NCBI RefSeq assembly: GCF_036365525.1
Contig: NC_090418.1
Span: forward strand, 5,309,492-5,373,491
Direction: 5' to 3'
Source of the DNA: Heterodontus francisci
Taxonomy: Eukaryota
DNA: 64,000 nt
Positions 12,497-46,530 of the stretch are shown here, piece after piece. The translations under genes were made by a program, and so were the position numbers. The notes below the pieces were generated by a model that had not been told where the DNA came from, searched no databases, and worked only from the letters and a program-made list of their open reading frames with translations. Every line of letters begins with the position of its first letter. Position 1 is the first letter of the stretch.

Positions 12497-12800
12497 TTCC
12501 GCCATTATCACTCTCTCTGGACTAATGCTTTGTCTTTTGCCACAACCATTAGCACTCCCTTTGCCTTTGTCCCATGACATCTTTGTCATTTAACCTCCCC
12601 TGCCCTCTGCCCTATCACACACCTTCCATTTTGTTCTCTTCCGCCCCCCTGTCCCCACCAACTTCACTTGCTTAAAGCCTATTACATTTCTAACCTTTGC
12701 CAGTTCTGATGAAAGATCACAGACCTGAAACGTTAACTCTGCTTCTCTCTCCACAGATGCTGCCAGACCTGCTGAATATTTCCAGCACTTTCTGTTTTAT
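12497..12800 (+). mobile_element. Penelope-like element 3' terminal (pLTR) fragment
   Basis: Near-identical to the 3' part (34150-34465) of the GIY-YIG-bearing copy. Flanked by near-TSD TCYTGGATCAA (12486-12496 / 12801-12811). Confidence 0.8.
12701..12741 (+). ncRNA. Minimal type I hammerhead ribozyme motif in the Penelope pLTR
   Basis: agtt-CTGATGA-a-agatc-aca-gacct-GAAA-C-GTT-aact. Intact core, 4-bp stem I, stem II with one mismatch, and a loop-less palindromic stem III (ACGT) of the kind found in dimeric PLE hammerheads. Confidence 0.7.
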
Positions 12801-33269: not shown

Positions 33270-35555
33270 AATACAGTAAAGAAGTCTTGCTGCAATTATA
33301 TAGGGCTATGGCGAGATCTCACTTGAAATACTGTACACCATTTTGGTCTCCTTACCTAAGGAAGCATATATTTGCCTTAGAGGGGATGCAACAAAGGTCC
33401 CTCAACCATGTCCGACCCGTTTCCCGCACTTCTGCTCTCAGCCTTTCCCTCCCTCCCAGAACCGTGATAGGGTTCCCCTTGTCCTCACTTTCCATCCCAC
33501 CGGCCTCCATGTCCAAAGGAACATCCCTCTGCCATTTCCGCCACCTCCAGAACGATACCACCCCCAAACACATCTTCCCCTCCCCTATCAGCATTCCGAA
33601 GGGATCGTTCCCTCCCTGGTCCACTCCTCCATCAGCCTCAACACCTCATCCCCTTCCCACGGCGCCTACCATGCAATCGTAGCAGGTTTAACACTGCACT
33701 TTTACCCCCTCTCTCCTCACCGTCCAAGGCCCCAAAACTCCTTCCAGATGGGTTCGCGATTTACTTGTATTTCCTTCAATTTAGCATACTGTATTCACTG
33801 CTCACAATGTGGTCTCCTCGGCATTGGGGAGACCAAAGGCAGATTGGGTGACCACTTTGTGGAACACCTCCGCTCAGTCCGCAAGCATGACCCCGAGCTT
33901 CCAGTTGCTCGCTATTTTAACTCACAACCTTGCTCTCACGCCCACATTTCTGTCCTTGGCCTGCTGCAGTGTTCCAGCAAAGGTCACGCAAGCTTGAGGA
34001 ACAGCAGCTCACCTTCTGATTAGGCACTTTACAGCCTTCTGGACTCAACATTGAGTTTAACAATTTTATAGCATGACTCCCATTTTTATTGTTTTTTTTT
34101 ACCATGTGCCGTACTTCTTGTTTTTACTTTTGGACAGAGCTGTTCATTATTCTGCCATTACCACTCTCTCTGGACTAATGCTTTTTTTTTAACTACCATC
34201 ATTACCACTCCCTTTGCCTTTTGTTCCATGACATTCTTGTAATTTAATCTCCTGCCCTCCATCCTATCACAGACCTTCCCTTTCGTTCTTCTCTCCACCA
34301 CCCTGTGCCACCGCCCCCCCCCCACCCCCCCCACTCCTTCATGTGCTCAAAACCTATTTCATTTCTAACCTTTGCCAGTTATGATGAAAGGCCATTGACC
34401 TGAAATGTTAACTCTGTTTCTCTCTCCACAGACCTGCTGAGTATTTCCATCACTTTCCGTTATATTGCAACAAAGGTTCACTAGATTGATTCTTGGGATG
34501 AGAGGATTGACTTATAGGAACATAGGAGCAGGAGTAGGCCATTCAGCCCATTGAGCCTGCTCCACCATTCAGTATGATCATGGCTGATCATCCACTTCAA
34601 TGCCTTTTTCCCACACTATCCTCATATCCCCTTATGTTATTGGTATTTACAAATCTGTCAATCTCTGCTTTAAACATACTCAATGACTGAGCTTCCACAG
34701 CCCTCTGGGGTAGAGAATTCTAAAAATTCACAACCCTCTGAGTAAAGACATTTCTCCTCATCTCGGTCCTAAGTGGCGTCCCCCTTATTTTGAAATTGTG
34801 TCCCCTGGATCTAGACTTCCCAAACAGCGGAAACATCTGGGCTGCACCCACCCTGTCTATCCCTTTAAGTATTTTGTAGGTTTCAATGAGATCACCTCTC
34901 ATTCTTCGAAACTCTACAGGCCCAGTTTCCCCAATCTCTCTTCATAGGACAGTCCCGCCATCCCGGGAATAAGTCTGGTGAACCTCTGTTGCACTCCCTT
35001 TATGGCAATAATATCCTTCCTAAGGTAAGGGGACCAAAACTGCACATGTTACTCCAGGTGAGGTCTAACCAAGGTTCTATACGATTGAAGCAAGACTTCA
35101 CTACTCCTGTACTCAAATCCTTGCGATAAAGGCTATGAGGAGAAATTGAGTAGAATGGGTCTGTAATTCTCTGAAGTTTAGAAGAATGAGAGGTGATCTC
35201 ATTGAAATGTATAACATTCTTAGAGGGCTTAATAGGATAGATGCTGAGAGATTGTTTACTCTGGTTGGAGAGTCTAGAACTAGGGGTCACAGTCTCAGGA
35301 TAAGAGGTCAGCCATTTTGGAGAAGTTTCTTTGCTTAGAGAGTTGTGAATCTTTGGAATTCTCTACCCACACAGTGGATGCTCAGTCACTGAGTATATTC
35401 AAGACTGAGATCAATAGATTTTTGGATGCTAAGGGAAATCAAGGGATAGGATGAAAGTTGGAGTTGAGGTAGAAGGTCAGCCTTGATTTTATTGAATGGC
35501 GGAGCAGGCTCAAGGGGCTGAATGGTCTCCTCCAGCTCCTATTTCTTATGTTCTT
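33270..35555 (+). mobile_element. CR1 3' fragment carrying two nested insertions (Penelope 33399-34465; - strand CR1 ~34515-35132)
   Basis: The CR1 reading LQLYRAMARSHLKYC..FWSPYLRK..LEGMQQR is interrupted, resumes at 34478 (ttcactagattgattc) and resumes again at ~35133. Confidence 0.8.
33399..34465 (+). mobile_element. 5'-truncated Penelope-like element with degenerate GIY-YIG endonuclease and 3' pLTR
   Basis: DRVPLVLTFHP...FTCISFNLAYCIHCSQCGLLGIGETKGRLGDHFVEHLRSV...PVARYFN. 12-bp TSD TGCAACAAAGGT at 33387-33398 and 34466-34477. Mutated hammerhead at ~34376-34416. Confidence 0.9.
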
Positions 35556-45000: not shown

Positions 45001-45444
45001 ACCCACTGCGCTCGCTGACCTACATTGACTCCTGGTCCAGCAACGCCTCGATTTTAAAATTCTCATCCTTGTGTTCAAATTCCTCCATGGCCTTGCCCCC
45101 CCTGCCTATCTCTGCAACCTCCTCCAGCCCCACAACTCTCTGAGATCTCGACGCTTCTCCAATTCTGGTCTCTCGTGCGTCCTCGATTTCCATCGCTCCA
45201 CCATTGGCGGCCATGCCTTCAGCTGCCTGGGGCCCTAAGCTCTGTAATTCCCTCCGTAAACCTCTCCGCCTCTCTCTCTCCTCCTTGAAGATGCTCCTTA
45301 AAACCTACCTCTTTGACCCAGCTTTTGGTCACCCGCCATAAGCACCTTGGCATGTATTACTATGTTGAAGGCACCTTATAAAGGCACGTTTTTCTTGTTG
45401 TTAATGCAAGCCCAACACCTTAGTCTGACTGGAATGATATGACG

Positions 45445-45895
45445 TCGGGGATACCAACTCTGGACATATTCCAGGAAATTTCATAAACTCCTGCCCCAAC
45501 CGCCCCGCCCCCGCCATTGGTCGCCTGACGCGTCATTCTTCACACTCCTATGTCCCGCGACCAATCGGAACGCGAACAGACTCCACATTACCACCAGTCA
45601 AACAACCTTGTCTCTTTAACCCATTCCCAATATTTTTATAACCAGTTAAGCAAAAGAGCGGAGAGAAAATGAAAAACGAAACGTTAAAAGCCCCGTTCCG
45701 AAGAAGGGTCACTGACCCGAAACGTTAACTCTGCTTCTCTTTCCACAGATGCTGCCAGACCTGCTGAGTGGTTCCAGCATTTCTTGTTTTTATTTTATAT
45801 TATATTATTATATTAAAAGCCCCTTGGATTTCTCCCCTGGGTTCACTCACAGACGGAGATTAATCTTTAATTCCTGGGGGGTTGGCAAACCCTGA
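45445..45895. mobile_element. hAT/Tip100-like MITE (ends GGGTTGCCAAC...GTTGGCAACCC); one of about 7 related copies
   Basis: Degenerate TIRs ggggataccaac / gttggcaaaccc. The internal sequence matches 18425-18630, 30590-30845(-), 43489-43720, 44560-44823(-), 52955-53323 and 56060-56410. Confidence 0.6.
45695..45812 (+). mobile_element. ~118-bp Penelope terminal mini-insertion made of the hammerhead motif, 3' end and (TTATA)n tail
   Basis: gtt-CCGAAGA-a-gggtc-act-gaccc-GAAACGTT-aac. 11-bp TSD TTAAAAGCCCC at 45684-45694 and 45813-45823. Confidence 0.8.
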
Positions 45896-46530
45896 TCCTG
45901 GAGCGCAGAGATAGGTCTGCAACCTTAGACTGGCCAGGTAGTGGCCGAGGAAGCGGGGGAGAGGTCAGATGTCGAATTTTGAAGTCGGCGAATATTAAAA
46001 ATTTAGATCAAACCTTTGCACTTTGTGAGTTGGCGACACACTCTAGAAATTTCCAGATTTCGCACTTCCAAAATAAAACATTCACCTCCAACTCATTACA
46101 GAATCTTAAAGCATAGAAGGCGGCCACTCGGTCCATCATGAGAAACTATCCGATTAGTTCCACTCCCCCACTGCTCTTTTCTCCCATAGCCCTGTAATTT
46201 CTTTCCCTTTTCAAGCATTTATCCAGTCCTCTTTTGGAAAGTTATTACTGAATCTGCTCCCACCGTCCTTTCAGAGCACAACACTGGCTGTGCAGGAGCA
46301 AAATTCCTCCACACCTCCACCACTCCTATAACAAGCTATTGATGTATTTAATCCCAGAGTTTGTATTGTTTTATCTAGCTCTGATTCCTGGAGTTTGCAT
46401 CTGTCAGCTTTAGAGGCAACTTTAGCAAGCATATTTAAAATTGCACTATTGAGACTCTGAGGCCCCTTCTCTTCCCAGGGCTAGGTCTGGGACGTGCAGC
46501 TCGCAAATGGTTACAAATTCACAACCTGAC

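Follow-up and report, generated by a model that had tools for sequence, protein, structure and literature searches.

Short Penelope-like insertions that begin at the hammerhead edge in Heterodontus francisci: candidate run-off cDNAs of the element's own transcript

The Penelope-like elements (PLEs) reported in vertebrates belong to the Neptune and Poseidon clades (bioRxiv 2026.07.22.740005). EN+ PLEs of the Neptune clade are described with one ORF containing an RT, a CX2-5CxxC Zn-finger-like linker, a DKG motif, and, at the C terminus, a GIY-YIG domain, with tandem units that give rise to pLTRs, a hammerhead in the pLTR, an optional tail of ca. 35 bp (30 to 40 bp), and adjacent inverted copies (PMC8557442). 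The shark family analyzed here shares these features, but its 5' truncation is nonrandom, about a third of the sampled copies ending in one 10-nt window. PLE hammerheads have been characterized as minimal motifs with a short stem I, a bulged base before stem II, a palindromic 15.2-16.2, and a G10.1-C11.1 pair; they cleave weakly, as dimers, and their solitary copies, which number in the thousands, are regarded as truncated PLEs (PMC4209133). All of this architecture recurs in our family, as do the solitary motifs (G10.1-C11.1 in the young subfamily), while the U4C core fixed in its most amplified subfamily, a predicted ribozyme, sets it apart from that description. In the Poseidon element PAc of Anolis, two internal RT start sites that bound the tail were found in vitro, independent of hammerhead activity; cleavage was dispensable for insertion, and no RNA ends were seen at the cut site (PMC11167929). 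The present family also has two 3' end sites ca. 100 to 135 nt from the hammerhead start that bound the tail, and cleavage would likewise be dispensable, but the ORF starts inside the hammerhead in PAc and 168 nt downstream here, and the main text on PAc reports no pile-up of 5' ends. Retrozymes and the SINE-like repeats of Schistosoma resemble our short copies (hereafter, stubs) in being short, noncoding, hammerhead bearing, and pLTR derived (bioRxiv 10.64898/2026.07.22.740005; PMC6765202). However, retrozymes form head-to-tail arrays (bioRxiv 10.64898/2026.07.22.740005), whereas stubs are dispersed monomers or head-to-head pairs, with neither a lineage nor a promoter of their own. Published work already covers pLTR hammerheads, solitary motifs in their thousands, tails, inversions, and internal priming; in the open-access literature searched, we found no description of a class of stubs defined by a start site.

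The window, i.e., the whole stretch of 64,000 nucleotides of H. francisci that was analyzed (contig NC_090418.1, positions 5,309,492 to 5,373,491, forward strand), contains one such stub on its plus strand. As the preliminary description had stated, a unit that starts at hammerhead stem I is flanked by an 11-bp TSD, TTAAAAGCCCC, at 45684-45694 and 45813-45823. Two random zones of the size considered here shared an 11-mer in only 0.19% of 20,000 trials, and the window copy is confirmed as a real TSD-flanked insertion. The unit between the TSDs (45695-45812, 118 bp) consists of 101 bp of element (45695-45795) and 17 nt of filler. Its first base is also the first base of a minimal type I hammerhead motif (45695-45729) with the published architecture (PMC4209133), followed by the remaining 5' leader of the element (45730-45795), which matches the parent except at subfamily haplotype positions and extends to the inner of two 3' end sites, where RT would have been primed. 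The filler (45796-45812) is AT only and missing in the parent, and it likely arose by slippage as reverse transcription began. It had previously been read as a (TTATA)n tail, but as a family feature this did not hold, with at least 8 AT-only bases at the 3' junction in 10 of 91 copies, a count that takes in AT-rich TSDs. Over 100 positions from C3, the window copy differed from the parent at four, three of them common GGTT/A haplotype positions and the fourth the first filler base. To find an empty-site paralog of the flanks, 40 of 428 candidates were scored, and all of these were copies of the element.

Several other observations concern the surroundings. The target flank at 45677-45687, which overlaps the left TSD, contains an 11-mer identical to the element core at 45718-45728, an identity with a chance of about 0.06%. 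The region around the insertion (45440-45900) has CCAAT-, GC-, and CRE-like motifs, and we took the ends of this stretch to resemble hAT-type inverted termini, a likeness for which repeat comparison gave no confirmation. Two more copies, both on the plus strand and of an older subfamily, lie elsewhere in the window: one (approximately 12600-12800) has a CTGATGA core and an A-T closing pair and has kept the upstream pLTR sequence, and the other (34337-34466, the span of the BLAST match) is more decayed, with a 10-bp deletion, and also has upstream pLTR sequence.

The hammerhead anatomy written in the preliminary description matched the sequence. In stem I, GTT (45695-45697) pairs with AAC (45727-45729), and between them are the core CCGAAGA (U4C), a bulged A, the 5-bp stem II GGGTC/GACCC with G10.1-C11.1, GAAA, and the palindromic ACGT, with the predicted cut after 45726 (45726/45727). 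Thus, GAAA, the NUH site, stems I and II, and the palindromic stem III are all present, and the young subfamily reads CCGAAGA in place of the canonical core CUGANGA. The U4-to-C change noticed earlier is real but not peculiar to the window copy, since it is the consensus of the subfamily of 33,510 copies; it is a natural variant reported to be considerably less active in vitro (PMC3088659). Similarly, the statement that stem II pairing is kept relative to the copy at 12701 is correct for the outer pair, but the stem of that copy (AGATC/GACCT) has a middle A-C mismatch. Rfam gave no hammerhead match at the window motif at an E value of ≤5, and minimal motifs without stem III may escape such models. 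The monomer fold had a z-score of −0.35, a stability that is not unusual, and its minimum free energy structure is stem II; in the minimum free energy structure of the homodimer, the stems II pair across strands and do not form a hammerhead dimer. All folding z-scores (−0.35 to +0.17) were uninformative.

In a set of 212 copies in which the young subfamily is overrepresented, the closing pair of stem II (10.1-11.1) was G-C in 183, G-T in 15, and A-T in 14; among 100 listed copies with the canonical core, counted by eye, it was A-T in 45, G-T in 48, G-C in 4, A-C in 1, and T-T in 2. The other four pairs were essentially invariant, and the loop was variable among older copies. The proposal of PLE subfamilies with a conserved minimal hammerhead was thus borne out, several being found with closing pairs that vary among A-U, G-U, and G-C, while the covariation suggested for the stem is real but limited to this one pair. 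Such a pattern fits a conserved stem; because it involves one pair and probably two historical changes, it is weak as evidence of function.

Exact copies of the 32-bp hammerhead number 33,510 in the 6.0-Gb genome, those of two downstream anchors number 48,183 and 50,048, and a canonical-core pattern retrieved 21,173 further, older copies. An intact head-to-tail tandem of 3,290-bp units, with three hammerheads 3,290 bp apart, was found at C1:23221468-23228089 (L091), adjacent units being 100% identical in the one pair compared. The parent has a single ORF, open for 916 aa from its ATG, with an RT and, C-terminally, a GIY-YIG domain (Pfam RVT_1, E value of 6e-6; GIY-YIG, E value of 0.0018; both just under the gathering scores) and with a C-x4-C-x2-C linker between RT and EN and a DKG motif, both read directly. 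Among 7,999 candidates scored, 1,392 were homologs of the parent protein at an E value of ≤1e-50, and the named ones with 66 to 70% identity came from a shark. Both the ORF and these homologs support the Penelope origin that had been assigned to the insertion. Judged by its linker and by the clades reported in vertebrates, the parent, an EN+ PLE, can be assigned to the Neptune type, and the tandem is a candidate active master. Since the hammerhead in the tandem lies 168 nt 5' of the ATG, the “3' end” of an insertion doubles as the 5' leader of the transcript of the next unit.

Some features of the leader and of particular loci are listed here as side observations. In the parent leader (L091:4125-4220, minus strand), an upstream ORF of 30 codons is present, together with three acceptor-like sites. 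The leader has a possible 96-nt intron, with a weak donor at +71 and a strong acceptor before the main ATG; loss of this segment, in which both 3' end sites lie, would join the upstream ATG to the main ORF in frame. This intron had no match among the 15 of 32 RNA joints listed. At C1:235.84-236.11 Mb (L294-L300), at least 16 copies inside a tandem repeat region have a common point change at the cut site, and the stubs of L233-L235 and of L239-L240, which have identical flanks on both sides, were carried in local segmental duplications.

In order to locate the 5' ends, we used two samples from the first 16 Mb of one contig. In the hammerhead-anchored one (90 of the first 100 listed places plus the window copy, 91 in total), 49 copies start 0 to 7 nt upstream of C3, 5 start 12 to 48 nt upstream, and 37 start at least 70 nt upstream. 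Re-anchoring downstream, which avoids selecting intact hammerheads, gave 98 distinct copies for 100 listed places, once 21 rows whose loci fell outside that listing had been dropped. Here, the start lies in a 10-nt window at the stem I edge for 35 copies; the adjoining 56 nt upstream hold 6 starts, the 34 nt downstream hold 21 (16 inside the hammerhead and 5 further 3'), and 36 copies extend at least 100 nt upstream. Binomial p values for the edge pile-up were 4e-23 and 2e-10, with both arms of inverted pairs counted, so that the counts are not independent, and with the sample drawn from the first 12 Mb of one contig. Genome-wide, the 10 upstream bases were kept in 14,522 of the 33,510 copies, a shortfall that includes point mutants and minor subfamilies. 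The ends thus pile up at the stem I boundary in a nonrandom manner, the outcome for which a genome-wide check had been proposed, and extrapolation from the two fractions (35/98 and 49/91) gives roughly 18,000 stubs in the genome.

No excess was found at AAC, 32 nt further 3', where the predicted cut would place the 5' ends. Copies without T before the cut site numbered 714 of 50,762, which is the maximum number of breaks there, and of the first 30 of these, 23 were otherwise intact motifs with a point mutation, 3 had an internal deletion, 3 were fold-back junctions, and a single one was a clean start, which was TSD flanked. Starts at the cut site are therefore no more than background truncation.

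Inversions were found in 34 of the 98 copies, including 16 of the 35 edge copies and 11 of the 16 that start inside the hammerhead. Among the 36 long copies, a single one had an inversion in the 140 nt inspected, a range in which more distant junctions may be missed. The remaining 19 edge copies have the same limit and no inversion, and 6 copies, outside the edge group, start at stem II. Given the inverted fold-backs and the starts at stem II, the structure of the cDNA shapes some of the ends. In five stubs (L019, L026, L068, L079, and L081), imperfect repeats of the first 8 to 9 bases have been added at the 5' junction, which suggests reiterative copying at the end of a template.

The sequence around the edge is conserved. 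In 60 parent-like copies, TTATAA or TTAAAA is found at −34 to −29, ca. 30 nt above the edge, and the edge itself reads TCAGTT or CCAGTT in most of them (54 have A at −4, and all 60 have G at −3); CCAAT lies further upstream in the parent. We take these motifs to be similar to the consensus of a TATA box and an initiator. A TATA box plus Inr has been described in a pLTR (PMC3846280). At the other extremity, 86 of 91 copies have their 3' end at +90 to +105 or at +129 to +141, in 27 and 19 of the 49 stubs and in 14 and 21 of the 37 long copies, respectively. Together, these data make it reasonably probable, in our judgment, that stubs are run-off cDNAs that arise by internal priming on the transcript of the element itself, with a putative start site at the edge. 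Transcription would start at the A or G of TCAGTT, and an RNA starting there would have priming sites only ca. 95 to 135 nt downstream, so that its product would be a stub. The window copy would derive from RT primed ca. 100 nt inside the transcript and running off the RNA 5' end, and read-through RNA across the tandem junction would yield the long copies. The free cDNA end could then join the target, producing a TSD-flanked stub such as that of the window, or fold back, producing head-to-head pairs; the inversions in 16 of 35 edge copies versus 1 of 36 long copies fit such a fold-back. Without a promoter, stubs would be mostly dead ends, and self-cleavage would be superfluous for making them.

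The base that precedes GTT was also considered, given that an untemplated G has been read as a sign of a transcript start (PMC3510499). G was more frequent than C genome-wide (2,474 versus 662, only these two bases being compared) and was found in 11 of 15 sampled copies, as expected from a copied cap. However, 11 of 30 G-GTT loci were junctions of fold-backs, and several more have a G that is part of the TSD, i.e., of target microhomology, so that the excess is confounded and suggestive only. Contigs that we guessed to be RNA had 10 to 40 times the depth over the hammerhead and tail versus the sequence just upstream, older subfamilies contributing to it; this was set aside as evidence, as contig depth cannot rank parts. 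Other points run against the run-off model: contig-level RNA cannot show RNA ends, the TCAGTT edge also reads as a branch point plus a CAG acceptor, and the Penelope of D. virilis has a TATA-less internal promoter that starts well upstream of the hammerhead (PMC2377424, PMC4209133).

Among the alternatives, a structure- or protein-dependent stop, in which, on a longer RNA, RT is arrested or the cDNA folds back upon reaching the hammerhead, seems to us rather unlikely, although it may apply to the fold-back class. It could occur, for example, where the element's protein binds the hammerhead, as the hammerhead of the anole element is protein assisted (PMC11167929), and it agrees with the inverted fold-backs among edge copies (16/35) and among those that start inside the hammerhead (11/16), as well as with the six ends that coincide at stem II. 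However, the 3' strand of stem I is the one that RT encounters first, so that a stop would be expected near +30, where ends are rare (5/98 in 20 nt). In addition, the 19 edge copies without an inversion share the limit, and no hairpin was predicted when the last 16 bases of the cDNA were folded as DNA.

We consider it unlikely that the boundary is a 3' splice site (CTAAY...CAG/TT) and that stubs derive from splicing-related RNA ends, even with TTCTAAY conserved at −18 to −12, YAG at −5 to −3, and an intron that ends at helix I in D. virilis (PMC4209133, PMC2377424). None of 148 short-copy junctions joins the parent at a splice donor, the one that joins the endonuclease region doing so at a nondonor, and the donor pattern was unmatched on the sense strand of the unit. 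Many stubs retain a G or AG that, under this reading, would belong to the intron; of 60 parent-like copies, 6 lack the A (3 of these were found by the C-GTT search); and the branch A would sit only 9 to 10 nt from the AG. Among 15 of the 32 RNA joints listed, none was found here.

The earlier suggestion of a separate nonautonomous ribozyme SINE, which would use the Penelope protein, was not upheld, and we regard it as quite improbable. Stubs do have sharp ends, TSDs, and a high copy number (roughly 18,000, by extrapolation), and they differ slightly from long copies: mismatches per 56 nt are 0.54 versus 0.22, a variant seen in 6 of 46 stubs occurs in 1 of 36 long copies, and one haplotype is found in 3 versus 0; one stub was apparently recopied with its upstream flank. 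Nevertheless, the three main haplotypes were common to stubs (13, 15, and 14) and long copies (15, 9, and 10) (chi-square p = 0.48), and since both 3' ends are shared as well, stubs are not a separate SINE lineage. Their 5' junctions vary from copy to copy, the promoter-like motifs lie outside the stub, and the short copies among 174 distinct copies included a single pair with a common non-element upstream junction. Some room for this reading is left by the slight overrepresentation of two variants, and of mismatches, in stubs. No tRNA-like match was found at the stub in Rfam, and the whole stub aligns to the parent. A non-LTR retrozyme was also considered and rejected, no same-strand neighbor being found within 1 kb among 100 listed places read by eye.

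Lastly, that ribozyme cleavage sets the boundary is hardly credible and was largely refuted already by the distribution of ends: the boundary coincides with the motif edge and PLE hammerheads do cleave, weakly and as dimers (PMC4209133), but cutting would take the core out of the copy, cleaved ends would be displaced by 32 nt in the 3' direction, to a position with no excess (714/50,762 without T before the cut; one clean start in the 30 checked), and the dominant subfamily is U4C, with a lower reported activity in vitro (PMC3088659).

A different kind of event was seen at two loci on C1, 26022706-26031137 (L174, L245/L247) and 27664867-27673518 (L176, L246/L248), which form an 8.4-kb duplicate with 98% identity. 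Their two stubs, 1.64 Mb apart, share the 5' junction and upstream DNA. The 3' breakpoint of the duplicate is the inner 3' end site of the stub, its 5' end is located 127 nt into a GC-rich high-copy repeat, and the derived copy has no TSD; its flanks look to us like one interrupted LINE. This is possibly a Penelope-primed retrocopy of unspliced host RNA. Alternatively, recombination or template switching between stubs, in keeping with the one tail base that differs, or DNA repair may have produced it. In Adineta vaga, pLTR-mediated capture of host DNA has been described (PMC3846280), and the 8.4-kb segment is similar in being duplicated up to the inner 3' end site of a stub but differs in that there is one case, with one stub at the 3' end only and no TSD.

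Taken singly, the window locus is ordinary: the element is of a known kind, and its copies number in the tens of thousands. The family, which combines an intact candidate master with low divergence and with about 50,000 junctions found by exact match, bears on how PLEs are copied and on how head-to-head ends arise, for which an antisense template has been favored (PMC3846280). The junctions point to a sense RNA that starts at the hammerhead edge and argue against a cleaved RNA template. More speculatively, PLEs might generate a genome-integrated class of strong-stop products, with fold-back explaining the inverted pLTRs and stubs acting as portable priming handles. If this were true, a third to half of the insertions would record the capped 5' end of the sense template, head-to-head inverted pLTRs would need no antisense template, and host RNAs that read through a stub could be retrocopied unspliced, as the 8.4-kb duplicate would suggest. 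If stubs also prime the retrocopying of host RNA, they would provide a route to intron-retaining duplication in a vertebrate.
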